64,000 nt of DNA from Prevotella sp. (GCA_031285625.1 JAITVV010000092.1:157679-221678); one strand, 5' to 3'. Positions 3,904-29,008 are shown, numbered from the stretch's first letter. The notes: generated by a model not told the origin, from the sequence alone. Numbers and translations: made by a program.

Positions 3904-3940
3904 CAAAGATTCAAAAACAAGTACGCAGCTTTTTTGCGTA
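3904..3940 (-). promoter_or_regulatory. Ro60 promoter (-7-like AATCTTTG) with palindromic operator TACGCA-N7-TGCGTA (3922-3940)
   Basis: Perfect 6-bp palindrome; recurs at 7402-7420 and 28990-29008 at the same spacing. Confidence 0.7.
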
Positions 3941-4064
3941 ACAAAAACTTTCTTTTAAAACTTCTCATTTTTAACAATTATCATAAAAAAGTAACAAGTT
4001 ACATCGATCTCCAATATTCAATTAATTATTTGATTATTAAATATATGATTCTAACATCAAGCAT

Positions 4065-4112
4065 AAAAAGTGACAAAAGTAACAGGTTTTGCCCATTTTT
4101 TATTGTAACCTT
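4065..4112. repeat. dispersed intergenic element AAAAGTGACAAAAGTRACA-N19-21-TGTWACYTT, copy 1
   Basis: Near-identical copies at 8730, 28487 and 31997. Confidence 0.7.
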
Positions 4113-4226
4113 ATTCTTTTATCGATATGCTGACCTAATAAGATAAAGTTTTTAAACAATCTCAAATCTGGTAATTTCATACTGATTATAAAAATAATAA
4201 GTGTATTTTTGGCTAAAATTTAACAA

Positions 4227-5138
4227 ATGTTTGAAAAGAAAATCAGTACGGCAATAGGCCGGTATTTCCCATTATTTATAGGATGGAGCCGATATATATT
4301 ATATAAACATCCCGACTGGCTGCTTCGAAAGGATATTCTTAAATATTATGATTCCGTATCTCCATCAGAAATAAATGAAGAACAAGCGGAAGCAGTTTCT
4401 TACATTCGTAAAAAAGGGGCGCATTATTTTCCCTATTCGTTTATTGAAAAGTATAATCCGGAAAAAATAAAAGTATATACAAATGAAAAATGTGGATTAA
4501 AGTATGTATTACATAATGAGAAACGGCTCTATTTTGCAAGAGAAACATCAGCTTTTAATATTCAGAGGATATATACCAACCTTTTGTACGAGCAGGATCG
4601 TAAATCTGCACATTGCTACCAGACTGAGACTTTTAGGATAGAAGAAGGAGACATCCTGTTTGATGTAGGTGCTGCAGAAGGTATATTTTCGTTAACAGTG
4701 ATTGAGAAGGTAAAGAAAGTCTATCTCTTCGAAGTAGAGGAGCGCTGGCTGGAAGCATTACGCGAAACTTTCAAGCCATGGCAGGATAAAGTGGAGATTA
4801 TCTGCAAATATGTATCTGATACGGATAGTGAGCAAACTGCCAAACTGGATACTGTTATAAAAAAGCTTAGTAATGAATCTTTATTTCTTAAACTGGATGT
4901 GGAAGGAGCCGAAAAATTAGTTATCAAAGGAGCAAACGAGATATTAACTTCAGGAAATAATAAAATTAAAGCTGCCGTATGTACCTACCACAATCAAGAT
5001 GATCATGAAGAACTATCGGCTATCATGAAGGATTTAGGATATAGGGTAAGTACATCTCCCGGCTACATGCTTTTTAAGCAACAAAATCTGGCTCCGCCTT
5101 ATCTGAGAAGGGGTTTAATTTATTGTAGTAAAGAATAA
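4227..5138 (+). CDS. FkbM-family SAM-dependent methyltransferase
   Basis: FDVGAAEG (motif I), LFEVE, LKLDVEGAE, CTYH. Confidence 0.85.
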   Translation: MFEKKISTAIGRYFPLFIGWSRYILYKHPDWLLRKDILKYYDSVSPSEINEEQAEAVSYIRKKGAHYFPYSFIEKYNPEKIKVYTNEKCGLKYVLHNEKRLYFARETSAFNIQRIYTNLLYEQDRKSAHCYQTETFRIEEGDILFDVGAAEGIFSLTVIEKVKKVYLFEVEERWLEALRETFKPWQDKVEIICKYVSDTDSEQTAKLDTVIKKLSNESLFLKLDVEGAEKLVIKGANEILTSGNNKIKAAVCTYHNQDDHEELSAIMKDLGYRVSTSPGYMLFKQQNLAPPYLRRGLIYCSKE

Positions 5139-5167
5139 TCTTTACATTATCAGAGAAATAATAGAAG

Positions 5168-6226
5168 ATGACAATACAAGAAATAAAGGACAAAGGGCTA
5201 TTACTATTTGAATGCATAAGTGGCAGTAAGGCATATGGTCTGGATACACCAACTTCTGATACAGACCTGAAAGGAGTATTTTATCTACCGAAAGACCAAT
5301 TCTTCGGACTGGACTATATTACTCAGATAAATAATGAGACCAACGATGAAGTATATTATGAGTTGGGGCGGTTTGTAGAATTGCTTTGTAAAAACAATCC
5401 TAACATACTCGAAATACTAGCTTCCCCTGAAGACCGTATATTATACAAGCATCCTATTATGGATAGCTTAAATATCGAACTGTTCTTATCCAAACTCTGT
5501 AAGGAAACTTTTGCGGGTTATGCTCATTCACAAATCAAAAAGGCCAGAGGCTACAAAAAGAAGATCGTAAACCCGATGGAAAAAGAGCGGAAGGATGTGC
5601 CCGACTTCTGTTATATTCTCGAAGGATATTCTTCTGTTCCGGTAAAAGAGTGGCTACAGGCGAAAGATTACCTTCAGGAAAGATGCGGACTGAGTTCTAT
5701 ACCTCATACTAAAGGAATGTACGCCTTGTTTTATGACGAAGATGATAAATTCAGATATAAAGGAATAGTACATAATCCCGACGCCAATGAAGTTGCTTTA
5801 TCTTCTATACAAAAAGGAGAGAAAGAAGTCGCCTATCTGTATTTTAATGTTGAAGCTTATTCTTTGTATTGTAAAGAGTACAAAGAATACTGGGATTGGG
5901 TTGCCAATCGCAATGAAATACGCTATCAGGGTAATCAGCAACATGGAAAAAATTATGATGCAAAGAACATCATGCACACTATCCGGCTGTTGCAGGTTGC
6001 CGAAGAAATATTGCGTGATGGGAAGCTAAATGTAAAGAGGCCTAATCGAGAACAATTGCTGAATATAAAAGCTGGAATGATGGAATATGATGAACTCTTG
6101 GTAATGGCGGACGACCTGATGCACAGGATAGAGCAATATGTCGGTAAAAGCCACCTGCAAGATATTCCTGATAAGAATAAAATAGAGGAAATATTGATCG
6201 GGATGAGAGTGAAATTATATAAATAG
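5168..6226 (+). CDS. RlaP/YcgL-like DNA polymerase-beta superfamily nucleotidyltransferase
   Basis: SGSKAYGLDTPTSDTDLKGVF (GS...DxD), YELGRF...NNPNILE, YDAKNIMHTIRLL. Confidence 0.85.
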   Translation: MTIQEIKDKGLLLFECISGSKAYGLDTPTSDTDLKGVFYLPKDQFFGLDYITQINNETNDEVYYELGRFVELLCKNNPNILEILASPEDRILYKHPIMDSLNIELFLSKLCKETFAGYAHSQIKKARGYKKKIVNPMEKERKDVPDFCYILEGYSSVPVKEWLQAKDYLQERCGLSSIPHTKGMYALFYDEDDKFRYKGIVHNPDANEVALSSIQKGEKEVAYLYFNVEAYSLYCKEYKEYWDWVANRNEIRYQGNQQHGKNYDAKNIMHTIRLLQVAEEILRDGKLNVKRPNREQLLNIKAGMMEYDELLVMADDLMHRIEQYVGKSHLQDIPDKNKIEEILIGMRVKLYK

Positions 6227-6228
6227 CT

Positions 6229-6657
6229 ATAGATCAGAATAATATATCAGAATTCCTATCTAAAGTTGAAAATATTATTAAGTCTCTTGATGAACTTTCA
6301 GGTTTATCAGACAATTGCATTAAAGAATTCGACGGTACTGAATTTGATGGACAAAGCCAGTTAGCTGGTAAGTTGGATGACCTGTTCCTTATAGCTAGCC
6401 ACGAAATGGCAACACAACTTGCTTTCGTAAAAGAAGATATTCTTATCCTTATAAAGTTCATAAAATTCAGAAAAGGATATCCCCAACTATCGGAAACAGA
6501 GCTCGAACAAATATTAGACACTGAGAATCTGGAACTTAAATTTAAAATGGAGATAAAACCTAAATTGAGAGACCATAGTATTCTTGAAATAAAGGAATTA
6601 TGGAACAATACATTCAACAATAAATCATTCAAGAAGATAATAAACCGGTTCAAATAA
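6229..6657 (+). pseudogene. hypothetical ORF, possibly 5'-truncated
   Basis: Frame is open from about 6223 to the stop at 6657 but has no ATG near its 5' end (track uses TTG 6373); no recognisable motif. Confidence 0.3.
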
Positions 6658-6661
6658 AAAA

Positions 6662-6785
6662 TCAGGGTAATAAGGCGAAAAGGCTGATATAAACCGGCGC
6701 TTTACTTTAAGCTACGAAATCGATAGGTCTTGCACCTATATAATCCGGATCCCAAATCGAAGAAATCCTCTTCTACGACACCTGA
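6662..6785 (-). ncRNA. Y-RNA-like cassette, array unit 5 (3'-most), permuted tRNA-like module
   Basis: Ends UCAGG/CCUGA; module CCGG-AUUAU-[AUAGG UGCAAGA CCUAU]-CGAUUUCG-UA-[GCUU AAAGUA AAGC]-G-CCGG. Confidence 0.78.
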
Positions 6786-6795
6786 AATTATAAAA

Positions 6796-6933
6796 AACAG
6801 AAGTAACAAGCGAAAAGAGCGAGCGGGGCATGGCTTGCCGGAGTCGAACCGGATAGTCTCGCCGGATTTACGACCTCACTATTCCTCCCCTAAAATTGGT
6901 AGCCGAAGTATCTCTCTTCTACGACATTCTGTT
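6796..6933 (-). ncRNA. Y-RNA-like cassette, array unit 4, with T-arm
   Basis: Ends AACAGAA/UUCUGUU; conserved frame; CCGG-UUCGACU-CCGG T-arm and an AUAGU/ACUAU stem. Confidence 0.75.
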
Positions 6934-6943
6934 ATATTTAATC

Positions 6944-7067
6944 AACAAGGCAACAAACGAACAGAGACTATAATAGCTTGCTCTACCCACTGAGCTACAC
7001 CCGAAGATGACAGGAATCGAACCCGTGACCCAGTTAACCGAAGTAACTCTATTCTACGGCACTTGTT
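6944..7067 (-). ncRNA. YrlA-like cassette, array unit 3, permuted tRNA module
   Basis: Ends AACAAG/CUUGUU; GGUC-[ACGGG UUCGAUU CCUGU]-[CAUC UUCG GGUG]-UA-[GCUC AGUGGGUA GAGC]-A. Confidence 0.85.
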
Positions 7068-7085
7068 TGTACTAATTCACAAATA

Positions 7086-7202
7086 AACAAGGTAACAAGC
7101 ATAAAGAGCAAACTTTGTCCAACCTCGGACGTTGCGGGAGTCGAACCCTTTTCATTAATTGGCGTTTAGCAAACGAAGTAACTCTTTACTACGACACTTG
7201 TT
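7086..7202 (-). ncRNA. Y-RNA-like cassette, array unit 2, with T-loop
   Basis: Ends AACAAG/CUUGUU; GGG-UUCGACU-CCC plus a GUCC..GGAC hairpin. Confidence 0.75.
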
Positions 7203-7210
7203 ATATTATT

Positions 7211-7352
7211 TAAACAAGGCAACAAACGAGAAAAGCCTTTTTGATCTGGTGTCCTATTTTACTAGACGACTACAACTTACATTGCTGGCTGTTTTTTCAA
7301 CAGCGTTTCCAGAGTGGATTACGAAGTATCTCTTCCCTACGGCACTTGTTTA
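7211..7352 (-). ncRNA. Y-RNA-like cassette, array unit 1 (promoter-proximal), degenerate permuted cloverleaf
   Basis: Ends UAAACAAG/CUUGUUUA; UCUGG-AAAC-[GCUGU UGAAAAA ACAGC]-acceptor-like hairpin-UC-[GUCU..GGAC]-A-CCAGA. Confidence 0.75.
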
Positions 7353-7384
7353 TTTATTTCAATGATCTTTTCTTATTTATACTG

Positions 7385-7420
7385 CAAAGTAATAACCTTG
7401 ATGTGCAATCTTTTTGCGCA
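7385..7420 (-). promoter_or_regulatory. array promoter (-7-like TTACTTTG) with operator TGTGCA-N7-TGCGCA (7402-7420)
   Basis: Same architecture as the sites upstream of Ro60 and of the 28.9-kb RNA locus. Confidence 0.7.
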
Positions 7421-7482
7421 ATGAAATATTTCTTGAAAAAAAGCTATTCTAACATATTGAAGATACTTACATCAAAACATTA

Positions 7483-8625
7483 TTATTTCCTATTGGGGTC
7501 ATATACAGCAACAGCCACACGTGAATCAGCACAGCCATAATACAGATACCATTTTTCATTATGTAATACCAGACCTTCAATGAACACTGTTCCTGCAGGA
7601 TATTGTCCACTCTTCTCAAAATCAGCTTCCGGAATATAGAAAGGCTTATCAAGCTGCCCGATCACTTTTGTCGGATCTTGCAGGTCGAACAATACCTGTC
7701 CTGCACAATAGGAGTTCGCAGTATATGCAGTATCACCTTCTGCTCCATCTGCATTTTTGCCATTATAAAGCAAAAGGATACCCTTGTCTGTCATTACAGC
7801 AGGTGGGCCACACTCTGTAAGAGAGCTATCAAACTTGCCCGGACGAGGCACTATCACTTTAAGGAAATCTCCGCTTTCTGTCAGTATTGGAGTCCAGTTG
7901 ATCAAATCATCGGAAGTTGCAACATTCACGAATTTTTCACCCCAATACATCCAGTATTTTCCATCAATTTTAGCAATTACCTGTTTTCCATCTACAATTT
8001 TAGTTATAATCGATGCCGACTTCGAAAAATCATCTTTAAAACGTCCGTCATAAGCTTTTGCAAATGCAGGCCCATGTTTTTCCCACTTTTGCAAGTCACG
8101 GGTAGTTGCTACAGCCAGGCGTGCCTGCTTTCTGTTCCATTGTGTATACAGCATCACATACATACCATCTTCAGTCATTGTAAGACGGGGATCTTCACAA
8201 CCTCCCGGCCATTCCAGCTCTTTCTGACTATCATTGTCAGGATAAAATGCCGGAGTAGATTTTCGTTGAAAATGCAACCCATCTTCCGACCATGCATATC
8301 CAAGGCGGGAAGTACGGCCACCTATACCCTCTCCCGATTTATCCTCTGCACGATAAAGAACTACTACCTTTCCATCATAAATAGTTGCTGCAGGATTGAA
8401 GGTATCATTCGATTCCCAGTCGACAGAATCTTTTCTCAACGGACAATAGAAACGGGTGGTAGCATCCGGTGAAATAATTGGATTTATCCCTTCCGGACGT
8501 TGAAAATCAGCCCATGCCCAATCCGGAAATTCCGAACCTTTTTCAGTTGGTTTCTTTTCATTACAAGAAACGAGCATAGCAGCTGTTGCTAAAAACAAGC
8601 TTACTTTAAAAATACTTTTTTTCAT
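7483..8625 (-). CDS. GH130-family mannoside-active glycosidase/phosphorylase, lipoprotein
   Basis: TFNPAA, LYRAED, GGCEDPR, ECGPP, YYGCADS; lipobox VSC. Confidence 0.88.
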   Translation of the reverse strand: MKKSIFKVSLFLATAAMLVSCNEKKPTEKGSEFPDWAWADFQRPEGINPIISPDATTRFYCPLRKDSVDWESNDTFNPAATIYDGKVVVLYRAEDKSGEGIGGRTSRLGYAWSEDGLHFQRKSTPAFYPDNDSQKELEWPGGCEDPRLTMTEDGMYVMLYTQWNRKQARLAVATTRDLQKWEKHGPAFAKAYDGRFKDDFSKSASIITKIVDGKQVIAKIDGKYWMYWGEKFVNVATSDDLINWTPILTESGDFLKVIVPRPGKFDSSLTECGPPAVMTDKGILLLYNGKNADGAEGDTAYTANSYCAGQVLFDLQDPTKVIGQLDKPFYIPEADFEKSGQYPAGTVFIEGLVLHNEKWYLYYGCADSRVAVAVYDPNRK

Positions 8626-8729
8626 TGGTTATATATTAATTATTTATTTGCAATGTATTTTACTTGTCTATCAAAAAGTAACATTAACACAAAACATCTA
8701 CTCATCTAATAATCAGGCAATATACTATT

Positions 8730-8778
8730 AAAAGTGACAAAAGTAACACTTTTTTGTATGTTTTTATATTGTTACTTT
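8730..8778. repeat. dispersed intergenic element, copy 2
   Basis: AAAAGTGACAAAAGTAACA-N21-TGTTACTTT. Confidence 0.7.
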
Positions 8779-8893
8779 ATTGCTAGATAACACGCTTGTT
8801 ATCTGTATTATATAGACAATATTGAAAATATAAAGTAACAGCTTTATTGGTAAAGAGATCCTTCGTTCCTCTGGATGACAAAATCTTCATTAC

Positions 8894-11044
8894 TTATGGA
8901 AATGAAGGCGGATCTACCTTAGTGCCCCATTGTAAATCAGGCTTGGAGGAAGTATTATATTCCAGTGTTGCTCCATTTGAGATATCCTTCCAGTCTATCC
9001 ATGTACTATCATATGGTTTGCCATCTATCTTTAAAGACCGTATATAAATATCTTTTTCCGACCCCCCTTTTATTACCAGGTCGCCATTCTTAAGCCGCAT
9101 CTTTATAGAAGGGAAGATGGGAGTGTTTATTGAGAAGCCTCCAACACCCGGAATCTCCGGATATAGACCCACACATGCAAAAACATACCATGCACCCATT
9201 GTTCCCAGGTCATCATTTCCAGGAAGCCCATCAATCTTATTAAAGTACTGCTCATTCAGCACACGATTTATTATTTTCTGTGTTTTATCCGGACGTCCTA
9301 CCCAGTTATATATCCATGGAATATGAAAACTAGGCTCATTTCCCGAAGCATACCAATCATCGTTATAACTTGCATCTAACCGTCTGAACAGATCATCAAG
9401 CCGCGCTTCCGCCTTGGCTTTACCACCTACGATATCTATCAGTCCGCCTATATCATAAGGAACCATCCAGAAATAATTTTTGTATGTGGATTCACGGAAA
9501 TCATCGCTTAATGGCTTCCATGAGCCATCCGCATTCCGGGATTGTAACCATCCTGTTTCAGGATTATACAGATTTTTCCACGATCGTGCAAAGTGAGTGT
9601 AGCGCCAGGTTGTAAATTCGTCACCACAGGCATATAATGAAAATCTGGCAATAGCAAAATCGGCAGAGGTATATTCCAGTTGTTCAGATGCATTGTAATA
9701 GCCTTTTTCCAGATATTGTTTCAATCCCGGACGCACTTCTATTTTTTGTGACATTGAACCGGGAATTTCGGCTCCATGTTGCATTATCTTGAGGATAGGC
9801 TTAGGATTATAATTTCTGGCACCAAATGCCCATGCATTTGAAATAAGTATCGGAGTAGGATCTCCCTGCATAATTCCGGTCTCTATATTTGCCATCGCCC
9901 AACGTGGAAATCCCTGTCCACCCGTTTCCTCTGCAAACAACTGATGAGAAATCACTATATCGGAAGCAATATCAGGATCGAGCATAGAAAGAAGCTGTAT
10001 CTGTGTGTGATAGGTATCCCAGTTACTGAAAGAAGTATAATGTTTAGATTTAGTTTTATGGATCTTAAAATCCGCGCCCATATATTCCCCATTCACATCA
10101 CTACAAACATTCGGATGAATAAGTACTCGATAAAGATGTGTATAAAACTGGATAGTGCGGTCAGGATTGGTTCCTTCCACTTCTATTCTGCCTAAATATT
10201 CATTCCATTTAGCTTCAGCCTGACTTTTCGTAATATTAAAATTCCATCCTGTATTCTCAGCTCTCAGATTTTCTCTGGCATTTTCAATAGATACATACGA
10301 AACCCCTACTTTATATTGTACTACTTTATTACTACTAACATCGAAAGTAAAATATACACCGGAGTTACTCCCTTCGGCAAAGGTTGATTTTTCTCTTATC
10401 TTATCGTCTTTCCATGTTCCTGTATCAACAGCTTTAGTATCAAATTCGGCAACAAAATATACCTTATACGGTGTAGGAGTTCCACAAAAATTACCTCCTT
10501 CGGCATACCCCTCACAAGTATTTGGACTTGTAATAATTACCGTGGCATTTTCTGTATGCGTTGCAGCTACACCTGCCCCGATTATAACAGTGCCTAAATT
10601 CTCACCCTGAGGATATTCATAGCGGGCCATACCTGTTCTTTCCGTAACAGTAAGTTCAGCTTTGATATCTTCCTGCACCATCGTTTCATAATAGCCGGCA
10701 TGTCCTTTTTCTTCAGATAAATTTATGCGATAGCTGATAATATCATCAGGGGACATTTGCAACCTTCCCTTTACCGGAAAAGTAGGAAAATTCCCCATAT
10801 GCTCGCAGCCTCCACCGCTTAACTGATTGATAACAAAACCCGACTGTTTGGAAAAATAAGACGGTGTAAACTGCACCATCCCGAAAGGATAAGTAGCTCC
10901 GGGATATACATATCCGGATGCCCAGCCTACCCCTTTATTACCGATGAGCGTATTTACCTTACTTGCATAGTCTGATAGTGCCGTTTGCGCATTCATTACT
11001 AAAAAAGGAATGATAAAAAGTAGACATATCAATCTGATTTTCAT
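8894..11044 (-). CDS. GH92 alpha-mannosidase
   Basis: PGATYPFGMVQ, SNWDTY, LEYTSAD, GNEPSFH, PGNDDLGTMGAWY. Confidence 0.92.
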   Translation of the reverse strand: MKIRLICLLFIIPFLVMNAQTALSDYASKVNTLIGNKGVGWASGYVYPGATYPFGMVQFTPSYFSKQSGFVINQLSGGGCEHMGNFPTFPVKGRLQMSPDDIISYRINLSEEKGHAGYYETMVQEDIKAELTVTERTGMARYEYPQGENLGTVIIGAGVAATHTENATVIITSPNTCEGYAEGGNFCGTPTPYKVYFVAEFDTKAVDTGTWKDDKIREKSTFAEGSNSGVYFTFDVSSNKVVQYKVGVSYVSIENARENLRAENTGWNFNITKSQAEAKWNEYLGRIEVEGTNPDRTIQFYTHLYRVLIHPNVCSDVNGEYMGADFKIHKTKSKHYTSFSNWDTYHTQIQLLSMLDPDIASDIVISHQLFAEETGGQGFPRWAMANIETGIMQGDPTPILISNAWAFGARNYNPKPILKIMQHGAEIPGSMSQKIEVRPGLKQYLEKGYYNASEQLEYTSADFAIARFSLYACGDEFTTWRYTHFARSWKNLYNPETGWLQSRNADGSWKPLSDDFRESTYKNYFWMVPYDIGGLIDIVGGKAKAEARLDDLFRRLDASYNDDWYASGNEPSFHIPWIYNWVGRPDKTQKIINRVLNEQYFNKIDGLPGNDDLGTMGAWYVFACVGLYPEIPGVGGFSINTPIFPSIKMRLKNGDLVIKGGSEKDIYIRSLKIDGKPYDSTWIDWKDISNGATLEYNTSSKPDLQWGTKVDPPSFP

Positions 11045-11196
11045 ATTGTTTTCTTATTATTATAGGAAACTATTCCTGTTCATACCTAACATTGTCGCTG
11101 TTCCGAAAAATTCAGGTATTCCGTGCGTTTACTGCATAAACCGCCAGAACAGCAAGCAGATGTTACTATTCATTTATTTAATTAACTTTATTCGCC

Positions 11197-13473
11197 TTAT
11201 TTCTTCGAAAGAGAGAATGGAGCAGCGTCTTTAGTTACACCTCTACTCCTATTTGGCTGCCCGCTCATTTCATATTTTATAGTTCCGCCGTTTACTATGT
11301 CTTTGTATGTGATATAATTTTTATTCAATGCATTACCATTCAGTGTAACCGATTGTACATACACATTGTCCTTGCTATTATTATTTGCTTCCACAACAAA
11401 TTTCTTTCCGTCTTCCATTGTAATGGTTGCTTTCTTAAATAATGGGCTACCCAATACATATTGGTCAGTACCCGGACAAACAGCATAAATGCCCAATGCA
11501 CTCAGAATATACCAGGATGACATACCTCCCTGATCTTCATCTCCCGGATAACCTTTTTCTGAGGAATTGTACAACCTGTCCATAATCTGGCGTGCCCAAT
11601 ATTGAGTCTTCCATGGTTGCCCTGCATATGAATACATATATATCATATGCTGAATAGGTTGATTACCTTGTGCATACTGTCCCATACCGGAAAGTTCCAT
11701 TTCTTTCATTTCATGGATTACACTTCCGTATGTACCCGGTTTGATAACATTAGGAACAGTAAATACCGAATCCATTTTTGTTGTCATCTTATCAGGTCCG
11801 CCAAACAGGTCGATCAAGCCCTGTACGTCATGAAATACAGACCATGTATAATGCCACGCGTTACCTTCACAATACGGTCCACCCCATACGAATGGGTCGA
11901 AAGGCTCCTGCCATTTACCATCATTGCCCCTACCCCTCATAAATCCTGTAGAAGCATCGAATACATTCCGGTAGTTATACATCTGTCTTTCAAAAACATC
12001 CATATAAAACTGATTTCCAGTCATTCTGGCCAGCTCATAACCACACCAGTCATCATAGGCATATTCCAGTGTCTGAGCACTAGATCCCGACGACTCAGGA
12101 TATGGTACATAGCCTAACTGGAAATATTCTTTCCAGAAGATGCGACCATTAGCCCCACCCCACGGGCCTTTATTCATAGCTTCATGTGCATAAGCTTTGA
12201 GAGCGCGTTGCGGATCGAATGTACGGATACCCTTTGCCCATGCATCGGCAAGAAGTGAGATTGCATGGTTTCCGATCATACCACCCGTTTCTCCGGGTTG
12301 CGACCATGAAGGCAACCAGCCGCACTGATCATGAGCATCAAGCAAAGCATTCATATATTGTCCCTGCATAGTAGGATGAAGAATATTTGTCAACGGAAAC
12401 TGTGTGCGGAATGTATCCCAGAATCCATTATCGGTGTACATATAGCCATTATAGATTTTACCATCATAAGGGCTGTAGTAATATGGTTCATTATTCGCAT
12501 TACGCTCGTAGAATTTGCGTGAAAAAAGATTGGCACGGAAAAGGCATGAATAAAATGTCCTCATCTGTTCATCTGTTCCACCTTCAACGACTACCCTGTT
12601 CAGCAATTTATTCCATGTCTCTGCACCACGGGCTTTTGTTTGTTCCAGATTCTTATCACTACCCAATTCCCTGTTTAACGTTAATAAAGCCTGTTCAGGA
12701 CTTATATAAGACGAGGCTGCTTTTGCCTGCACCTTTGTCCCTTTTTTGAACTTGATATATGCTCCAGCTCCCTTTCCTTTACGGTGGGCTTCACCAGAGA
12801 ATATCTCATCTTTCTGATTCTCCCATGTACCATAAGCTTCAAACGGTTTATCGAACTGAACAACAAAGTAGTTGCGAAAATTTTCCGCATGATTTACGAA
12901 GCGTTGATTGTTTACCCAACCTGTAATTTGTCTTTTCTGTGGGTCTATCGTAACCTCACTCATATCAGTATAGCCATCTAGTACCAGATAGGCATCGCCT
13001 TTAGGGGGAAATGAAAAACGAAGATGTGCTCCACGTGTAGTGGGAGCCATTTCGGTAGTAATTCCATTGTCAAGAGTAACCTTGTAGTAATTTGGTTTAG
13101 CTATTTCATTATTGTGGCTGAATTTAGAAGCTCGCTTTTCCTGATTTACAACTAATTCTCCCACCATCGGCATAAAAGAATATACAGCATAGTCGCTCAC
13201 CCACGGACTGCACTGATGTGCCTGCTGGAATCCGCGTATTTTGTCTTCAGCATATTGATATTTCCATCCTTCACCATTAGGCCCGGTCTGTGCCGACCAT
13301 GTATGCATAGCATAAGGCATAGCCGTAGTGGCATATGTATTCCCATAACTTAATCCGAAATTAGAATCTGTTCCCTGTAAGGTATTTACATATTGCACCA
13401 GGTCTTTTTGCTGTGAATGCACAGCAATAACTGATAATAAATAAATGAAAACGAATATTGCGATTTTTTTCAT
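11197..13473 (-). CDS. GH92 alpha-mannosidase
   Basis: GFWDTFR, TLEYAYDD, EGNAW, GNQPIQH, GDEDQGGMSSWY. Confidence 0.93.
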   Translation of the reverse strand: MKKIAIFVFIYLLSVIAVHSQQKDLVQYVNTLQGTDSNFGLSYGNTYATTAMPYAMHTWSAQTGPNGEGWKYQYAEDKIRGFQQAHQCSPWVSDYAVYSFMPMVGELVVNQEKRASKFSHNNEIAKPNYYKVTLDNGITTEMAPTTRGAHLRFSFPPKGDAYLVLDGYTDMSEVTIDPQKRQITGWVNNQRFVNHAENFRNYFVVQFDKPFEAYGTWENQKDEIFSGEAHRKGKGAGAYIKFKKGTKVQAKAASSYISPEQALLTLNRELGSDKNLEQTKARGAETWNKLLNRVVVEGGTDEQMRTFYSCLFRANLFSRKFYERNANNEPYYYSPYDGKIYNGYMYTDNGFWDTFRTQFPLTNILHPTMQGQYMNALLDAHDQCGWLPSWSQPGETGGMIGNHAISLLADAWAKGIRTFDPQRALKAYAHEAMNKGPWGGANGRIFWKEYFQLGYVPYPESSGSSAQTLEYAYDDWCGYELARMTGNQFYMDVFERQMYNYRNVFDASTGFMRGRGNDGKWQEPFDPFVWGGPYCEGNAWHYTWSVFHDVQGLIDLFGGPDKMTTKMDSVFTVPNVIKPGTYGSVIHEMKEMELSGMGQYAQGNQPIQHMIYMYSYAGQPWKTQYWARQIMDRLYNSSEKGYPGDEDQGGMSSWYILSALGIYAVCPGTDQYVLGSPLFKKATITMEDGKKFVVEANNNSKDNVYVQSVTLNGNALNKNYITYKDIVNGGTIKYEMSGQPNRSRGVTKDAAPFSLSKK

Positions 13474-20975: not shown

Positions 20976-21075
20976 GTAAACGTTTTTCAAAACACAACCT
21001 ACATAACACAATGATTACAAATAAATTACCAAAAACACATAATTAGATTTTGGTAAATGATATTGAATCATTTTT

Positions 21076-22680: not shown

Positions 22681-22706
22681 GCAAGTTTAGGATATTGTAA
22701 AAGATT

Positions 22707-22800: not shown

Positions 22801-22895
22801 CTTCGTACAAACTTACATAATTAATAGGAGAAATAATATCTTATTATAAAAAAATGCACCACGCTTATCAGCATAAGTGAAGGTAAAAAATAGTA

Positions 22896-22932
22896 AATCC
22901 GGCAAAGAGATTAATGTCTTCTTTGCCGGATT
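22896..22932 (-). terminator. intrinsic terminator after susD
   Basis: AATCCGGCAAAGA/TCTTTGCCGGATT IR followed by a U-rich tail on minus. Confidence 0.7.
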
Positions 22933-23000
22933 AAGGTCACAGACCTATTTCATTACTTTAGTTAGTAGAACAATTATCAGTTATGATTCGTATATACCAG
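22933..23000. repeat. same intergenic element, copy 2 (shorter)
   Basis: AAGGTCACAGACCTATTTCATTACTTTAGTTAGTA...GTTATGATT. Confidence 0.5.
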
Positions 23001-23002
23001 TA

Positions 23003-24817
23003 TTACCAACCCGGATTCTGTGTAAGATTCGGATTTGACATCATTTCGATATAAGGGAATGGCCATAACAATAGTTTGTCATTCCAAGAGCCCTTATCTG
23101 CTACGTCATCATACATTACATCATAATTACTCAAATCCCATGGATCAGCAGGACGTGGAGCATTCGGATTTTTAAATCCTGCAAGCCATGCAAAAGCTGT
23201 TCCCCAATAATCTCCAACTCCATTGTCTGTGGTATCAAGAATAAAATTCTTATAGTCTCCCCAACGGATTAAATCTACATAACGGTCACAATCTTCCATA
23301 CACAGTTCGAAACGACGTTCCGCCTTAATCCCGTAGGTAGCATTATTCATATCCAGAGAAGGAGCATTTGTAAGACCGGCACGATTACGTACTTTATTTA
23401 AAGCCTGTAGGCCCGTAATATTAGCAGTTCCTTCAGAACCTGATGAACATACTGCTTCTGCATATAAAAGTAATACATTGGCATAACGCATAAGAGGGAA
23501 ATTGGTACGGTTACCACTTGCCTGACCCGAAGCATAGCGGCCTTCGTCAAGATCGTCAAGATGGTTATAATATTTCATCCGGAAATATCCCTGATTACTA
23601 AATAACCTGCCACTTGTCATAACACCACGGGCAGCACTGTTTGCATAAGAAAAATCATTATATACTTCATAGTAGGTAGCCAAAGACATGCGACGGCGTA
23701 CACTATTTCCATCATGCTTGCAAAAAGCAGTACCAAAGGCACGGGTAGGATTAATGAATCCCCAACCATCAGCTTGAGAGTTAGTACAATCACCCGGAGT
23801 AAATAGCTGGTCGTTACGCCAGCCTGTATATGCCCAAAACCAGTAAGGTTCGGTATTGGTAATAGTATTGTTATCACCATCAGTGTCTATCTCCAGTAGA
23901 TATTCGTCGCAAAAGTCAGCCTCTGTACGGAAAAGTGTCAGATACTCATAACTTTCACTTCCATCAACCCATGTAGCAGACTTACTTTCTTTATACAGTG
24001 TAGTATTTGCTCCATAAGAGCTTGGGCCCATTGTTTTGGTTTTTGTCCAAAGGTCATATTTATTCGAATTAATAACTTTTGCCAGCCATACTTTAGCATT
24101 CTCATAATCATTCTGCCACATATAGCCTTGCCCCTTAAAGGCATAACAAGCCTCAGCTGTCCAACGTCCACCGATTTGCCTTTGTCCGCCTAATCCGCTT
24201 TTGGATGGAAGATCAGCAGCAGCTTCATCAAATTGTTGCATTATCCATATCCAACTTTCTGCCGGAGTAGAGTTTCCTGGTGTAAACGAATGGTTAATTC
24301 CATCCAGAACATGATCAACTAAAGGCGCTGATCCCCATAGCTGAGTAAGACGCATCATAGCCCATGCCCGCCATGCTTTAGCCTCAGCAATCACTCGTTT
24401 TCTTTCCGGTGAGCCATCATTCAACTTATCTACGATCATATTACTTTTGTAAATGATATTATAAAAACGTTGATACATATCCTTATATGCATTGTTCTCC
24501 GAATCATCTACCATCTTCGCCATCTTCTGATAGTCGCCACCATCACCCGAGCTAGAACCTCCAGGCCAGAAGTCTGCTGTTTTTACAGTAGTAGAAGCGA
24601 TATAGTGAATCCCCCAATCTCCGGTAACAAGATTCTTAGCAGTAGCATATATTTCACCTACCAATTGAGTAGCAGTTGCATCATCAGCATTTGCATATGT
24701 TTCATCTACCGGAATCACCCCCAATTGTGGAATGTCAAGTTCATTATCATTACAGGAAACCAACATGATACCTGTAAACAAGCTGATTATGACTAGTGTT
24801 ATAATATATTTTCTCAT
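23003..24817 (-). CDS. susD: SusD/RagB-family glycan-binding lipoprotein
   Basis: lipobox VSC; AEAKAWRA, MRYANVLLLYAEA, LNKVRNRAGL, ERRFELCME..RYVDLIRWG, C-terminal QNPGW. Confidence 0.93.
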   Translation of the reverse strand: MRKYIITLVIISLFTGIMLVSCNDNELDIPQLGVIPVDETYANADDATATQLVGEIYATAKNLVTGDWGIHYIASTTVKTADFWPGGSSSGDGGDYQKMAKMVDDSENNAYKDMYQRFYNIIYKSNMIVDKLNDGSPERKRVIAEAKAWRAWAMMRLTQLWGSAPLVDHVLDGINHSFTPGNSTPAESWIWIMQQFDEAAADLPSKSGLGGQRQIGGRWTAEACYAFKGQGYMWQNDYENAKVWLAKVINSNKYDLWTKTKTMGPSSYGANTTLYKESKSATWVDGSESYEYLTLFRTEADFCDEYLLEIDTDGDNNTITNTEPYWFWAYTGWRNDQLFTPGDCTNSQADGWGFINPTRAFGTAFCKHDGNSVRRRMSLATYYEVYNDFSYANSAARGVMTSGRLFSNQGYFRMKYYNHLDDLDEGRYASGQASGNRTNFPLMRYANVLLLYAEAVCSSGSEGTANITGLQALNKVRNRAGLTNAPSLDMNNATYGIKAERRFELCMEDCDRYVDLIRWGDYKNFILDTTDNGVGDYWGTAFAWLAGFKNPNAPRPADPWDLSNYDVMYDDVADKGSWNDKLLLWPFPYIEMMSNPNLTQNPGW

Positions 24818-24834
24818 AATGTTATTGTTTTAGA

Positions 24835-27800
24835 TTAGAATGAAAGATTGAGCCCAAATGTTACAGTTTTCGGACTTGGATAATCTCCGTAATCCATACC
24901 CATTGCTCCGGTTTCACTTAGAGTGCCTTTCGTATTCGGAGGAGTCACACTTACAGACTCAGGATCCATACCCGGATATTTTGTAAAAGTGAAGAAGTTA
25001 TCCAAAGAAGCAAAAACACGCAGTCTGGATATTTCAATCTTCCTTGTAAGTGAAGCCGGTATAGTATAGCCAAGTTGTAATTGTTTGATCTTGAAATATG
25101 AACCGCTCATAAGCTGTGCCGATGATTTGGCAAACTTATCGTCAGTTGGATTCGGATGCGGATATTTTGCTCCCGGACCTTTCACATCCCACGAATCTGT
25201 CCAGAATTCTGCCAATTGATTAGCAGTTGCCGATCCACGCATACTAACCACCATTTTTCCACCTGAGCTACCGCTACCAAAAGCTGTAAAGTCAAATCCT
25301 TTGTAAGCTGCGGATATTGTTAGCCCATAATAAAACTTAGGTATAGCAGAACCTAAGAATACTTTATCAGATTCATTTATTTCACCTTCTCCTGTTTGAT
25401 CTTTATATAGAGCTTTGCCAGTATCAGGATCCGGACCCAGATATTCATAGCCATAATAGCTCCACACCGGTTGTCCTTTGTAGAAATAAACGAATCCATT
25501 AGAATATCCATCCTCAATAGGTTTCTGAACTTCATCCAGTTTTGTAACCTTATTATGCAAAGTTGCCAGATTAGCACTCACACTGTAAGAAAAATCATCT
25601 ATTTTATCTTGCCAGCCCAGATCAAATTCAAATCCTGCGTTATTTACTTTACCCACATTCTTCCACATCTCTGTAGTTCCTGTAGAAAGAGGAGGTGTTA
25701 TTTTTACTAGCTGCCCAGTTGTATTCTTATTATAATAATCGACAGTAAGAGTAAGACGATCATTCAGGAATCTGGCATCAATACCCGCATCTATTTGTTT
25801 AGATTCTTCCCAGTTCAACATAGGGTTTGTCAATGTATTAGACGGAGAGATTGTGTTTACAAGGCTTCCTCCGATAGGATAATAACCCGGAAGGTTCAAA
25901 GATGAACTCCACCGATACCCGCTAAGAACATTTACGTTACCATTTACCCCATATGAAGCACGTACTTTCAGGAAAGATAAAGTTTTAGGACTTATATTCT
26001 CCATAAATTTTTCATTACTAACAGTCCATCCGGCAGATACAGAAGGGAAATATCCCCAGCGATTATCTTTTGATAGTTTAGAATTGTCAAAAGCATCTGC
26101 ACGGAAATTAGCTTGTATCATATAACGATTATCATATGCATAGCCTATACGTCCGAAGTAACTCATTTTCTTACTTTTACCTACTGATCCGCCTACACCA
26201 TCATTAGCGCCGCTTGAAGAATAGTCCAAATAATGGAAGTTTGGTGCACCATTTATAAATTCGTCTGTGGTACCTCTGGTATAGTTTCTCCAATTAGATG
26301 AATATGACATCCCAGCCATCGCATATACATTATGCTTGTTGAAAGTCTTATTATAGTTTGCAAAGTTTTCCCATTCATAAAATCTTTCAGTAGCTGTTTC
26401 TGCTTCGTAGCTTAGCTTCGAGCGTGGAGAAATAGAGAAATACACAGGAACTCCATAATATTTATAATCTTCGGATCCTAAACGGTAGCCCAAACGGGTA
26501 GTAAATACAAAACCTTTGATCGGTTTGAAATTCAATGATGTTACCCCTCTGATATTAAAATCCTTATGTTTACTGTTCTGACTATAATACCATGTCATAG
26601 GATTTGTATTATCAGCATTGTATTTAGGAACAGCAGCATAATCTCCGTTCTCATTTTTCATAAGCATATCATCACCTTTAGACGTAATCAGGTCTTTCAT
26701 ATATTGTGGCAAATTATCCTTATCATAGAAAAGAGGAGTCAACGGATCATAGTAATAAGCAGAGTTAAATCCTTGTTTATTAATTCCATCCCCTACTCTT
26801 GAGTATTCTGAGTTTTCGATTGAATTATTCGAAGAGAATTCGAGCCACGGCTTAATATTATAAGTAGCGTTCAGTTGGAAAGAAAGACGATTTATATAAT
26901 CTTTATCTCCATAGTACATACCATCATTTTTCATATAAGATACTGATGAGTATAGAGTACCATTATCATTTCCTCCTTCAAAACCTACTGTATGACGCTG
27001 GAAAGAGCCATTATCTCCATAGAGAGCTTCGCTCCAATCTGTATCTGTAACGCCATCCCAGTCATTCACCAAAGAGTTACCGGCTGCCTTGTTATAGTCA
27101 ACATATTGTTGAGCATTCATCATTTTGGGCTTGCGGGCCAATGAAGTAATCCCGTAGTTAAAATCATAGAAGATTTTGCTTTCCCCTTTTGTTCCGCTTT
27201 TGGTTGTGATAAGTACCACTCCATTACCGGCTTCTACTCCATAGATAGCTGCAGATGCACCATCTTTAAGTATCTCCATCGATTTTATGTTATTTGGATC
27301 CAGATAGGCAATATCTTTTACTTTAAGACCATCGACCACATAAAGAGGTTCTGAATTTCCTGAAGAGTTGGAGCTTATACCGCGTATACGAACAGCAGGA
27401 CTGGTTCCCGGTGCGGATGAACCACCCATGACTTGTACACCGGCTGCTTTTCCCTGAAGGGCTTGTTGTACGTTTTCAACAGAACGTGATCCAAGAGCAT
27501 CTCCCTTTACCGAAGTTATGGCTCCTGTTACATCGCTTTTCTTTTGTACACCGTAACCAATCACGACTACATCATCTAGCATTTTTGTATCTTCTTCAAG
27601 AATAATGTGAAGAGATGTTTGATTCCCTACAGATATAAGTTGAGGGCTAAATCCCAAAAGCGAGACTTTAATTTTTTGACTAGACGATACATTTTCCAAT
27701 GTAAATGTACCATCATCTAAGGTTAGAGTTCCCTGGGTAGTTCCCTCGATCACCACAGTTGCTCCAATAATAGGTTCTCCCGTATTATCGACAACTGTTC

Positions 27801-27903
27801 CTGTCAGATTCCTCGTTTGCGCAACAGTCTGGCTGCCTGCAAACGGAATTGCAAGAATCATAATCAGTGTTATTAAAGTCAATTTCAATAAGCTTTGTTT
27901 CAT
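24835..27903 (-). CDS. susC: SusC/RagA TonB-dependent transporter
   Basis: GEPIIGATV, LDDVVVIGYG, PLYVVDG, LKDGASAAIYG..AGNGVVLITTK, WGYFPSVSAGW, terminal GLNLSF. Confidence 0.95.
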   Translation of the reverse strand: MKQSLLKLTLITLIMILAIPFAGSQTVAQTRNLTGTVVDNTGEPIIGATVVIEGTTQGTLTLDDGTFTLENVSSSQKIKVSLLGFSPQLISVGNQTSLHIILEEDTKMLDDVVVIGYGVQKKSDVTGAITSVKGDALGSRSVENVQQALQGKAAGVQVMGGSSAPGTSPAVRIRGISSNSSGNSEPLYVVDGLKVKDIAYLDPNNIKSMEILKDGASAAIYGVEAGNGVVLITTKSGTKGESKIFYDFNYGITSLARKPKMMNAQQYVDYNKAAGNSLVNDWDGVTDTDWSEALYGDNGSFQRHTVGFEGGNDNGTLYSSVSYMKNDGMYYGDKDYINRLSFQLNATYNIKPWLEFSSNNSIENSEYSRVGDGINKQGFNSAYYYDPLTPLFYDKDNLPQYMKDLITSKGDDMLMKNENGDYAAVPKYNADNTNPMTWYYSQNSKHKDFNIRGVTSLNFKPIKGFVFTTRLGYRLGSEDYKYYGVPVYFSISPRSKLSYEAETATERFYEWENFANYNKTFNKHNVYAMAGMSYSSNWRNYTRGTTDEFINGAPNFHYLDYSSSGANDGVGGSVGKSKKMSYFGRIGYAYDNRYMIQANFRADAFDNSKLSKDNRWGYFPSVSAGWTVSNEKFMENISPKTLSFLKVRASYGVNGNVNVLSGYRWSSSLNLPGYYPIGGSLVNTISPSNTLTNPMLNWEESKQIDAGIDARFLNDRLTLTVDYYNKNTTGQLVKITPPLSTGTTEMWKNVGKVNNAGFEFDLGWQDKIDDFSYSVSANLATLHNKVTKLDEVQKPIEDGYSNGFVYFYKGQPVWSYYGYEYLGPDPDTGKALYKDQTGEGEINESDKVFLGSAIPKFYYGLTISAAYKGFDFTAFGSGSSGGKMVVSMRGSATANQLAEFWTDSWDVKGPGAKYPHPNPTDDKFAKSSAQLMSGSYFKIKQLQLGYTIPASLTRKIEISRLRVFASLDNFFTFTKYPGMDPESVSVTPPNTKGTLSETGAMGMDYGDYPSPKTVTFGLNLSF

Positions 27904-28253
27904 AATCTTAAAAAAATTAATAATTTATTGTTTAGTAGTTCATTGTATCCGGCGTCTATCACTCTCTCGTCAACCGGATGAGGTCGTAGTATGGATTTCT
28001 TAGTTACATTCATAAAGATTTATTGGTTAGTATTAGGTGAATTATTTCATAGCATAAGATATTTTAGTGTTATCATCTTATGAACGACTTAGGATTAAAA
28101 TACCACTAAAACATTTTTCAATTTCGTGAAAATAAGGGCTTAAAGAATTAAAAGGCCGGCTGATTAAATAAATAATCAATCGACCTGTATTTTAGAAGTT
28201 AATCTTACAATAACTTATTCTATTTTAGCTTTTTGTAAAACTCTGTAAGTTTA

Positions 28254-28466
28254 TCAACTGAATGATGCATCTTTGGATATAAAAGAGATCAGCTTAACAG
28301 TAAGACCCTCAAGAGCAGCAGCCTCTATTTTATGATGACCATCCAACAAACAGTTGGCAAATCCCCAATGTGATACAATTCCATCTTTAGGAGTTGTAAA
28401 ACTTAGTCTCGATTGTGATTTTCTGACTTCGAGATGTTTGTGATCTATATTACTTTCCATATTCAA
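28254..28466 (-). pseudogene. small ORF or gene fragment with a ParB/Srx-like LLDGHHK motif
   Basis: 70 aa; LLDGHHKIEAA resembles the ParB-like nuclease motif but the domain is incomplete. Confidence 0.35.
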
Positions 28467-28486
28467 TCTTATTTACCATACATTAA

Positions 28487-28534
28487 AAAAGTGACAAAAG
28501 TAACAACTTATACATATATTTTATCTGTTACTTT
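28487..28534. repeat. dispersed intergenic element, copy 3
   Basis: AAAAGTGACAAAAGTAACA-N20-TGTTACTTT. Confidence 0.7.
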
Positions 28535-28581
28535 TTCTTTCTGTCCCATTTATATTAGACAATCTTAATTATATATTCTTG

Positions 28582-28777
28582 TACTCCTAATGAGATTCGA
28601 ACTCATATTCCCTTTCGGGCAGTACGGCTCTAAATACGCTTCCCTACTTTTCAGTTAAGAATTTCGGTGCATCTGTAAAATCTACCCATAACAACGCGCA
28701 GCTATTACGGGGCTATCCATACACTCTATGGTAAGTCTAAATTTTGCCACAGGCTTTTCCTTTTAAGCTATAGGAGC
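28582..28777 (-). ncRNA. tRNA-like RNA (Leu-type body) with a 119-nt structured segment in place of the anticodon loop
   Basis: Acceptor GCUCCUA/UAGGAGU + A73; D arm GCUU/AAGC; anticodon stem UGUGG/CCGUA; variable arm CCC-GAAA-GGG; T arm AUGAG-UUCGAAU-CUCAU. Confidence 0.75.
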
Positions 28778-28784
28778 AAATTAT

Positions 28785-28935
28785 AAACGAGGTAACAGGC
28801 GAAAAGAGACTGTTTATCCTGCTCTACCACTGAGCTACACTCCCGTTAATTTGTATTACTGAGAGAGTGAGGGGACTCGAACCCCCGACCCGGGCATTAA
28901 AAGTGCGAAGTAACTCTAATCTACGACACTCGTTT
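28785..28935 (-). ncRNA. YrlA-like Y RNA with a complete circularly permuted tRNA module
   Basis: Ends AAACGAG/CUCGUUU; frame; GGGUC-[GGGGG UUCGAGU CCCCU]-[CACUCUC..18 nt..GGGAGUG]-UA-[GCUC AGUGGUA GAGC]-A. Confidence 0.87.
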
Positions 28936-28972
28936 TATGCTTTGTATATGAATGATCGCTTGTTTGATGATA

Positions 28973-29008
28973 CAAAGTAAAAGCACCGGAGCGCAGTGTT
29001 TTTGCGTA
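28973..29008 (-). promoter_or_regulatory. promoter (-7-like TTACTTTG) with operator AGCGCA-N7-TGCGTA (28990-29008)
   Basis: Third copy of the Ro60/Y-RNA operator at the same spacing. Confidence 0.7.

Follow-up and report, generated by a model that had tools for sequence, protein, structure and literature searches.

A 19-base-pair (bp) palindrome of one type stands before the gene for Ro60 and before each of two non-coding, Y-RNA-like loci in a 64,000-nucleotide (nt) stretch of DNA from Prevotella sp. (GCA_031285625.1, JAITVV010000092.1:157679-221678), called the window here at its full length. We consider it probable, at roughly 0.8, that the three palindromes are operators of one transcription factor, most likely a WYL protein of about 340 amino acids (aa) encoded at C37:141064-142083, on the contig that also holds the window (C37:157679-221678 of a 4.84-Mb assembly in 96 contigs, the genome being 94% complete). 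An earlier note on this DNA had joined the three sites into a regulon and guessed at a WYL-type regulator, without identifying it in the window. Both guesses fit what was found: the candidate gene is intact 16 kb to the left of the window, and its product, with a winged helix-turn-helix (wHTH), a three-helix bundle, a WYL and a WCX domain, co-occurs with the motif in the genus, adjoins a site across Bacteroidota and has DriD as its nearest structure.

The palindromes were found where the earlier note had placed them, with TACGCAgctttttTGCGTA at 3922-3940, TGTGCAatcttttTGCGCA at 7402-7420 and AGCGCAgtgttttTGCGTA at 28990-29008, and so were the minus-strand CTTTG boxes, whose G lies at 3904, 7385 and 28973, at 18, 17 and 17 nt from the start of the dyad. 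Every box (AATCTTTG, TTACTTTG and again TTACTTTG) deviates by one base from TAnnTTTG, and both TTACTTTG(Y) boxes fit the variant TAnnTTGY with 0 mismatches as well. The heptamer GATCATT is common to both RNA loci on the minus strand, downstream of the boxes (AATGATC on the plus strand at 7361-7367 and 28951-28957). What did not stand was the proposed consensus YRCGCA-N7-TGCGYR, which is too strict and on the plus strand misses two of the sites from which it came, site 2 (TGTGCA) and site 3 (AGCGCA). A better consensus, read on the transcribed strand, is TRCGCAAAAANNNTGCRYA; on that (minus) strand the three sites have the form TRCGCAAAAA-N3-TGCRYN, followed after 12-13 nt by the CTTTG promoter box, and the genes and RNAs behind all three are likewise on the minus strand. 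The putative operators and promoter boxes are:

3922..3940, minus strand: operator O1, Ro60 promoter, reads TACGCAAAAAAGCTGCGTA; weight matrix 30.5 bits
3941-3962, minus strand: A/T-rich tract upstream of O1
3904..3911, minus strand: -7 box AATCTTTG of the Ro60 gene, 13 nt from O1
7402..7420, minus strand: operator O2, RNA locus 1, reads TGCGCAAAAAGATTGCACA; weight matrix 29.0 bits
7385..7392, minus strand: -7 box TTACTTTG (TAnnTTGY reading too), RNA locus 1, 12 nt from O2
28990..29008, minus strand: operator O3, RNA locus 2, reads TACGCAAAAACACTGCGCT; weight matrix 29.7 bits
28973..28980, minus strand: -7 box TTACTTTG, RNA locus 2, 12 nt from O3

The dyads were also considered as terminators, and this was rejected: on its strand no gene lies upstream of site 1, the stems measure 6 bp, and a terminator scan gave nothing for the first two sites and, for site 3, only an overlapping 5-bp stem such as chance would produce. 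A scan for sigma-70-type promoters was set aside, as it does not apply to this phylum.

In the window, the bare palindrome YGCA-N7-TGCR occurs 4 times with 1.94 expected, and 11 of 100 shuffles reach 4. The 16-mer GCANNNTTTTTGCGYA common to the three sites occurs 3 times with 0.00 expected (100 shuffles); since this pattern was derived post hoc from the sites themselves, the real test is what it matches elsewhere. It turns up only 5 times in the whole 4.84-Mb genome; a motif frequent at random positions was an outcome that the earlier note had named as speaking against its regulon. A looser form, RCGCAAAAANNNTGC, is likewise found 5 times genome-wide, where base composition predicts about one. 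All five copies have one orientation and constant spacing, with 12-13 nt to an xTTTG box. A weight-matrix scan of the genome scores them at 29.0-32.0 bits and the runner-up at 18.6, with the proviso that the matrix was trained on pattern-selected sites and its invariant columns are partly there by construction.

The five copies head five units, namely Ro60, the two Y-RNA-like loci, a Hen1-Rnl-Pnkp1 operon and an open reading frame (ORF) of 443 aa. Site 4 (C37:150037, 7.6 kb left of the window; dyad, 13 nt, xTTTG) is 28 nt upstream of a gene with a Hen1_N domain (expect value, E, 3.6e-61), which is followed by genes for a protein with a PNKP ligase domain and for a PNKP kinase-phosphatase. This operon matches the split Pnkp1-Rnl-Hen1 type of RNA-repair system described in the accessible part of PMC4411300. 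Motif copies before RNA-repair genes had been predicted for a genome scan, and besides the Hen1 operon here the modules of relatives precede RtcB, SPFH-RtcB, RlaP and Hen1. Site 5 (contig C91; dyad, 13 nt, xTTTG) precedes the 443-aa ORF, which belongs to no known family: it gave no Pfam or NCBIfam match and no usable Atlas match (mean predicted local distance difference test, pLDDT, of the Atlas model 0.38). This ORF was itself considered as the regulator and rejected, being present in only 3 of the 35 genomes of our genus sample, with one copy broken.

The closest homologues carry the source name Dysgonomonas, and within the genus sample loci were fetched from 13 genomes. We counted 43 full modules (CGCAAAAANNNTGC, 15-18 nt, TTTG), spread over 18 of the 35 genomes, compared with 2 occurrences of a reversed control. 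In the alignment an A/T-rich tract (AAAATAATTT) leads to the dyad, after which come a variable linker with TTTTA at its end, CTTTG and often TATCATCAAA. The linker measures 12-13 nt in all five sites of the genome and in 43 of the 43 genus pattern matches listed, and most genus sites with a 12-nt linker have the box TTTTACTTTG. Three further sites with one core mismatch each lie beside more copies of the regulator gene or before RlaP. Ro60 orthologues are present in 8 of the 35 genomes (81-94% protein identity), and the dyad is found at the same place upstream of all eight, with both half-sites and TCTTTG kept and the 3-nt centre and the 13-nt linker varying. Kept half-sites around a varying centre and linker are the pattern that a protein footprint would leave.

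A survey of what lies behind the sites in genus genomes with the WYL gene covered 44 modules (41 exact, 3 with one core mismatch). RNA-repair genes stand directly behind 23 of them (Ro60 in 8, the Hen1 operon in 4, RtcB itself in 4, SPFH-RtcB in 3, RlaP in 4) and ORFs of no known family behind 3 (the 443-aa ORF twice, a 137-aa ORF once), while 18 of the 44 are followed by at least 200 nt of non-coding DNA. When the non-coding targets in the loci of three relatives were scanned with Rfam, all six gave YrlA-like matches of 36-42 bits, below the threshold; the matches of both RNA loci of the window are sub-threshold as well.

Clustering of all ORFs around the sites yielded, besides RtcB and Ro60, one protein of about 340 aa that is encoded in the loci of 9 of the 13 genomes, mostly divergently from the site. 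It carries the families PF13280 (WYL; E 1.1e-11, residues 155-222) and PF25583 (WCX; E 2.7e-12, residues 256-323), and no Pfam HTH model matched in its residues 1-150. Orthologues with at least 70% identity occur in 18 of the 35 genus genomes; 16 genomes have both regulator and module, 2 only the regulator, 2 only the module and 15 neither, a count for which we state no probability, the genomes being related and thus non-independent.

The association extends far beyond the genus. With a profile of 113 relatives we recovered 80 loci with regulators 51-82% identical to the candidate, spanning Bacteroides, Prevotella, Muribaculaceae, Rikenellaceae, Flavobacterium, Pedobacter, Mucilaginibacter, Dyadobacter, Saprospiraceae, Balneola and a metagenome-assembled genome of Ignavibacteria. 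When the 1200 nt upstream of the regulator were compared with TRCGCAAAAANNNTGCRYA, 25 loci gave a best match free of mismatches, 32 one with 1 mismatch, 6 one with 2 and 17 one with at least 3, and none of 77 control stretches past the 3' end of the gene contains a match with fewer than 3. Usually the dyad is 34-60 nt from the start codon of the regulator and faces away from it, toward RtcB, Ro60 or SPFH. Over the 1.03 Mb of the 80 loci there are 96 sites with at most one mismatch, as against 0 for the reversed consensus, and 89 of these 96 have TTTG at the right distance. At least one site is present in 67 of the 80 loci and at least two in 26. The flanks of 53 loci contain a homologue of a core RNA-repair gene (RtcB 39, Ro60 18, RlaP 9, PrfH 2, Pnkp1 1).

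At the level of the order (301 genomes) the table is indicative only, because the single-protein search behind it missed at least two family members that the profile later found. Regulator orthologues at E <= 1e-70 were recovered in 19 genomes, and outside the genus 9 of 17 WYL-positive genomes have an exact-pattern site at most 150 nt from the start of the gene. A loose pattern (CGCAAAWWNNNTGC...TTTG) matches 73 of the 301 genomes but with many control matches, which makes it too noisy in raw form; its matches were filtered by eye for TGCRYA, itself a weak step. Some relatives of the regulator, about 57% identical, are longer (520-580 aa) by a C-terminal extension of about 200 aa, which in P0121 is a PhyH-type dioxygenase domain (E 1.8e-14); six other long forms were scanned and gave no Pfam match there.

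Protein and DNA further appear to vary together. Positions 3 and 17 of the dyad pair as C/G in 82 sites, T/A in 5, C/A in 2 and T/G in 0; the half-sites change together, and the dyad evolves symmetrically. Five loci have TGTGCA..TGCACA operators, and in all five the predicted recognition helix carries R at residue 54 and N at residue 58, whereas each of the 58 other loci with an operator has Q at residue 54. A change from Q to R at residue 54 would be the event expected if the predicted recognition helix reads the changed base pair.

An AlphaFold2 model of the candidate (pLDDT 91.7, predicted template modelling score 0.73) comprises a wHTH at residues 3-81 (helices 3-19, 27-42 and 50-61 and a beta wing 71-81, pLDDT above 90), a three-helix linker at 95-164 (helices 95-113, 120-136 and 153-164, with a pLDDT of 70-80, lower than the rest), a WYL barrel at 169-223 and WCX at 256-337. 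Model and Pfam together thus contain the features of class A WYL proteins, i.e. wHTH, three-helix-bundle linker and WYL followed by WCX. Foldseek ranks DriD (8tp8) first with E 1e-14 over the full length, followed by PafBC (2e-11) and by BrxR and CapW (1e-7), and a sequence search of the Protein Data Bank (PDB) also returned DriD as its best, weak match (E 0.002-0.007). The candidate protein is likely to bind the dyads.

The targets in the window deserve a closer description, since Ro60 and the RNA loci differ in how well they can be named:

2335..3849, minus strand: Ro60 (Rsr) gene, 504 aa, TROVE and Ro60 vWA domains; TROVE E 6.5e-31, NF041674 below its cut-off
6640..7379, minus strand: RNA locus 1, non-coding, with internal repeats; ends approximate
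6955-7055: YrlA-like module of RNA locus 1; YrlA 35.2 bits (gathering score 69), E 8.3e-6
6715-6782: tRNA-like module of RNA locus 1; tRNA 23.2 bits
28576..28967, minus strand: RNA locus 2, YrlA-like RNA; YrlA 34.3 bits (gathering score 69), E 1.2e-5; ends approximate
28818-28893: T-arm and D-arm mimicry, RNA locus 2; tRNA 28.7 bits (gathering score 29)
28685-28711: terminator-like hairpin, RNA locus 2

O1 is 54 nt upstream of Ro60, whose 5' leader (3850-3903, minus strand; TAATGTCAAACAA...AGAGTGTCGT..AAGACCTTAAC) is nearly invariant in all 8 orthologous loci, in which the promoter linker varies; the leader may be structured or bound by a protein. Neither stretch behind O2 and O3 contains an ORF. 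At Rfam's own thresholds a tRNA-His was the only match in the window, and the scores of both RNA loci stay below the gathering threshold of YrlA (RF02553). In the alignment the T-arm/D-arm mimic fits well and the Ro-binding stem does not; given this and the sub-threshold scores, we name the loci YrlA-like rather than members of the family. RNA locus 1 is 70-83% identical over 170-460 nt to stretches behind operator sites of relatives, and RNA locus 2 is 81-90% identical over 360-409 nt to operator-driven loci of four relatives. The operator sites support both loci as presumably real, regulated transcription units. RNA locus 1 contains internal repeats of about 57 nt at 84% identity and of 30-32 nt at 87%, and related strains in public sequencing runs have insertions or deletions of 68 and 276 nt there; Y-like modules in a tandem array that gains and loses copies would fit these observations.

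For the position of the sites within their promoters we relied on Flavobacterium psychrophilum, in which the main box of the phylum, TAnnTTTG, spans -12 to -5, and in a variant, TAnnTTGY, the spacing between TA and TTG is shorter by one base (PMC9723704, accessible part). The sites with a 13-nt linker read TAnCTTTG, the main form, to which the Ro60 box AATCTTTG has one mismatch, and those with a 12-nt linker read TACTTTGY, the variant form, so that the distance from TA to the dyad is equal in both classes. Because the box spans -12 to -5 in that species, we place the start sites near 3899, 7379 and 28967 on the minus strand, and the three dyads of the window would then span about -41 to -23, with their centre near -32. 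Where a TTTG at -33 would be, the dyad has its invariant A-run. The earlier note had suggested that the regulator perhaps compensates for weak promoters; since a -33 box is not general in the phylum (PMC7366714, as far as the excerpted text goes), its absence is weak evidence for dependence on an activator, and this argument is soft.

Among known systems, DriD of Caulobacter crescentus offers the nearest comparison. In the accessible part of PMC13004042 it is described as a homodimer on ATACGAC-N7-GTCGTAT whose site overlaps the -35 region of promoters without a good -35 element, at an identical distance to the -10 in all targets; one of its sites lies in a bidirectional promoter shared with driD, and its three-helix bundles contact the C-terminal domain of the alpha subunit and the beta subunit once single-stranded DNA (ssDNA) frees them. 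The candidate resembles this class A WYL activator (PDB 8tp8, 9pfq) in its domain order of wHTH, three-helix bundle, WYL and WCX. The site resembles that of DriD in being a dyad spaced by 7 nt with a TACG/CGTA core, at a fixed distance to the downstream box and with a probable overlap of the -35 region, and most relatives here share the divergent layout with the gene of the regulator itself. However, identity is only 16-18%, the half-site is TRCGCA here and ATACGAC in DriD, and the promoters are Bacteroidota -7-box promoters of a regulon of RNA repair and Y-like RNAs, whereas DriD controls DNA-damage genes with ssDNA as ligand.

The task is presumably shared with another system, that of RtcR (CARF/AAA+/sigma-54) and the Salmonella rsr-yrlBA-rtcBA operon, in which RNA repair is switched on upon RNA damage. 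Ro60, YrlA-type RNAs and, in relatives, RtcB recur in both. Yet there are at least five separate promoters here instead of one operon, and the sensor would be a WYL instead of a CARF domain. RtcR itself is not in evidence, as PF06956 has no match in this genome (94% complete), and direct reading of the three promoters reveals no shared GG-N10-GC element of the sigma-54 type. PafBC of Actinobacteria is the second-best structural match, with WYL-WCX domains, and activates promoters without a -35; it differs in being a heterodimer with a short, non-palindromic site at -26 and no DNA binding without RNA polymerase, in contrast to the symmetric dyad and single regulator gene found here. BrxR and CapW, repressors of the bacteriophage exclusion (BREX) and cyclic-oligonucleotide-based anti-phage signalling (CBASS) systems, have HTH-WYL-WCX architecture and bind inverted repeats beside their own gene (PMC13004042, same part), but they match less well (E 1e-7) and repress defence operons, unlike the RNA-repair targets and the promoter-embedded site in fixed phase seen here.

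These comparisons suggest a mechanism in which the operator would be a 19-bp dyad, TRCGCA-AAAAnnn-TGCRYA on the transcribed strand and often flanked by C and G, within a promoter module of fixed order (A/T-rich tract, dyad, 12-13-nt linker, -7 box, start site). The candidate factor would act as a homodimer whose two winged helices read the two half-sites, for which the dyad form of the site, the paired change of the half-sites and the change in the recognition helix alongside that in the operator give indirect support. By analogy with DriD, PafBC and CapW, its WYL domains might bind single-stranded nucleic acid produced by damage to RNA (or DNA), and the ligand-bound factor could then recruit the housekeeping RNA polymerase and switch on the RNA-repair regulon. 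Activation seems likelier than repression, because the nearest structures are activators and the three-helix bundle is present, because A-rich spacer, A/T tract and linker length are kept in one orientation to the box, and because the layout copies that of DriD promoters. The composition of the regulon, with enzymes that heal and seal RNA ends, Ro60 and Y RNAs, makes broken RNA a natural candidate for the ligand, and we give RNA fragments an even chance of having this role. The ligand may instead be ssDNA, given that DNA damage, too, induces the Salmonella rsr-yrlBA-rtcBA operon (PMC7790460, accessible part).

A number of observations weigh against a WYL activator acting through these sites. 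The placement of the dyad over the -33 region suits a repressor as well, and among WYL proteins BrxR and CapW repress. The WYL gene of this genome adjoins no site; the nearest is 8 kb away and there is none upstream of the gene. No exact site occurs in two genus genomes that have the WYL gene, G046 (99% complete) and G021 (82% complete), nor, beside the gene, in 8 of the 17 WYL-positive genomes outside the genus. Conversely, two WYL-negative genus genomes contain a pattern match; that of G008 has a poor second half-site, that of G048 precedes sulfatase-modifying and fimbrillin genes, and both look like chance matches or orphans. Five apparently WYL-negative genomes of the order have a full dyad, in three of which the profile found no family member. 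The genome's own RtcB gene (C29:8157-9551) has no site within about 1.6 kb upstream, and the Methyltransf_21-RlaP operon (4227-6226) has none of its own. Besides the relatedness of the genomes that underlies the co-occurrence count, the loci with R at residue 54 form one clade, so the change is a single event.

The most serious alternative keeps the same site and the same WYL protein but lets it repress in the manner of BrxR and CapW, covering the -33 region and leaving the DNA on a damage signal. We regard this as rather unlikely. The dyad does overlap the core promoter, Foldseek relates the model to both of these repressors, which bind inverted repeats (E 1e-7 to each), the dyad at 34-60 nt from the start codon of the regulator in most relatives is a classic layout for self-repression, and promoters without a -33 box are nothing out of the ordinary in this phylum. 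The activators DriD and PafBC are closer in structure, however (E 1e-14 and 2e-11), the model includes the three-helix bundle through which DriD makes its contact with RNA polymerase, and the layout matches DriD promoters. Moreover, occlusion needs neither the A-rich spacer nor the 12-13-nt linker, which are oriented one way to the box in 89 of 96 sites.

Two other explanations change the identity of the factor. The dyad might be bound by another protein, for which the HTH_11-WYL-WCX paralogue in the window (42927-43862) and an NrtR-like Nudix regulator come into question: the genome has three WYL proteins, the candidate included, with one inside the window, and the NrtR-type winged-helix protein (L001:101-802) recurs in the loci of 3 of 13 genomes. 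This is very improbable, given that the paralogue shares 20% identity with the candidate and has hydrolase, oxidase and AraC genes around it and no site in the vicinity, that only the ~340-aa family adjoins sites across the 80 phylum loci, and that this family also shows a change in the recognition helix alongside a change in the operator. Even less credible, in our view close to negligible, is that no dimeric regulator exists and the conserved block is the upstream element of an alternative-sigma promoter or a duplicated promoter cassette kept by descent. It is true that the entire module is conserved and not the dyad alone, and that the boxes with a 12-nt linker fit TAnnTTGY, which is set apart from the main sigma-A motif in F. 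psychrophilum (PMC9723704, same part). Yet a sigma element does not require that both half-sites be kept and change together, and centre and linker vary freely among orthologous promoters whereas the half-sites do not. The module is also tied to the presence of the WYL gene and fronts unrelated genes and RNAs over the whole phylum.

Returning to the WYL protein as probable activator, full-text literature searches found no paper that links a WYL regulator to RNA-repair genes, with Burroughs and Aravind 2016 (NAR 44:8525) as one that may bear on it, and the supplements of the transcriptome map of B. thetaiotaomicron contained none of the terms RtcB, TROVE, WYL, Ro-like and RNA ligase. To our knowledge, it is not known outside the RtcR-bearing Proteobacteria how the synthesis of Ro60, Y RNA, RtcB, RlaP and Hen1-Pnkp is controlled. 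Signals of RNA damage are known for one system only, in which tRNA fragments bind RtcR (PMC7790460, in its accessible part). The kind of regulator proposed here, a DriD-type WYL activator, is already known; the novelty is the regulon and not the mechanism. New in this window are a dispersed regulon whose regulator is far from the sites, free-standing Y-like RNAs and a Hen1-Rnl-Pnkp1 operon as targets, and the symmetric co-variation of the half-sites together with that between protein and DNA. With a 19-bp site, a named candidate and target promoters at hand, the control of RNA repair in the phylum becomes directly testable.

Conservation of the site reaches from Bacteroides and Prevotella of the gut to Flavobacterium and Mucilaginibacter of soil. 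A wider and more tentative view, with the odds somewhat against it, is that of a phylum-wide "RNA SOS". A DriD-like WYL factor would sense broken RNA directly by its WYL domain, e.g. tRNA halves or other fragments with repair-type ends, and through one operator switch a dispersed and re-assorted regulon of Ro60, free-standing Y RNAs, RtcB, RlaP and Hen1-Rnl-Pnkp1. If true, this would be an independently arisen functional counterpart of RtcR/CARF and the first instance in which a transcription factor dedicated to damage sensing controls Y-RNA genes. Lupus autoimmunity has been associated with the Ro60 protein of commensal gut bacteria, which gives the timing of the protein's synthesis some medical interest. 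The site further serves as a marker for new RNA-repair genes and non-coding RNAs, having singled out the 443-aa protein and one of about 745 aa.

The latter is encoded beside RtcB or behind operator sites (L062:3401-5635, L060:2784-5018, L049:1550-3793, L061:3069-5309); 4 of the 13 genus genomes have it in their loci, and it appears in 10 of the 80 loci of the phylum. It belongs to no Pfam family, with only a weak Prok-RING_4 match, and is a candidate partner in RNA repair. Another locus (L051:8419-10490, G016:C23) has an operator-driven block of RlaP-RlaP...Hen1 that holds a TPR + HEPN_LA2681 gene (E 4e-69) and a CPCC + Barstar-like gene, predicted to be an RNase and inhibitor pair inside the repair regulon.

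The surroundings of the sites in our genome likewise fit an RNA-repair island, with NYN + OST-HTH, an FkbM-type methyltransferase and the RlaP nucleotidyltransferase as neighbours in the window. The NYN + OST-HTH/LOTUS protein (721-1473) is encoded close to Ro60 both here and in three further genomes of the genus (G004, G024, G043), and no operator precedes its gene. Between the regulator gene and the Hen1 operon, on contig C37 left of the window, lie genes for the NrtR-type Nudix regulator (L001:101-802), an RNA ligase (PF09414; 4873-5604) and an HD + AAA_33 kinase (5815-6933), and an operator stands before none of them. With neighbouring repair genes that lack the operator, the island is larger than the regulon. 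The WYL paralogue in the window (42927-43862, minus strand, 311 aa) has as neighbours an AraC/GyrI-like regulator, an alpha/beta hydrolase and a PNPOx-like gene.

Two public RNA runs cover window positions 1-12000 in long contigs with even depth over all genes, from a related strain about 97% alike, and this even cover could be DNA carry-over. Joints from 4090 to 8730 in these runs were considered as a deletion and rejected, as their sides measure 22-26 nt and lie on a repeated motif. This other intergenic motif, AAAAAGTGACAAAAGTAACA, stands at 4070-4086, 8734-8750, 28491-28507 and 32001-32017, usually with TGTTACTTT about 20 nt later, and its repetition there accounts for the joints. It occurs 187 times genome-wide (at most 2 mismatches) as against 3 times for a reversed control, and may be a repeat element or a global site.

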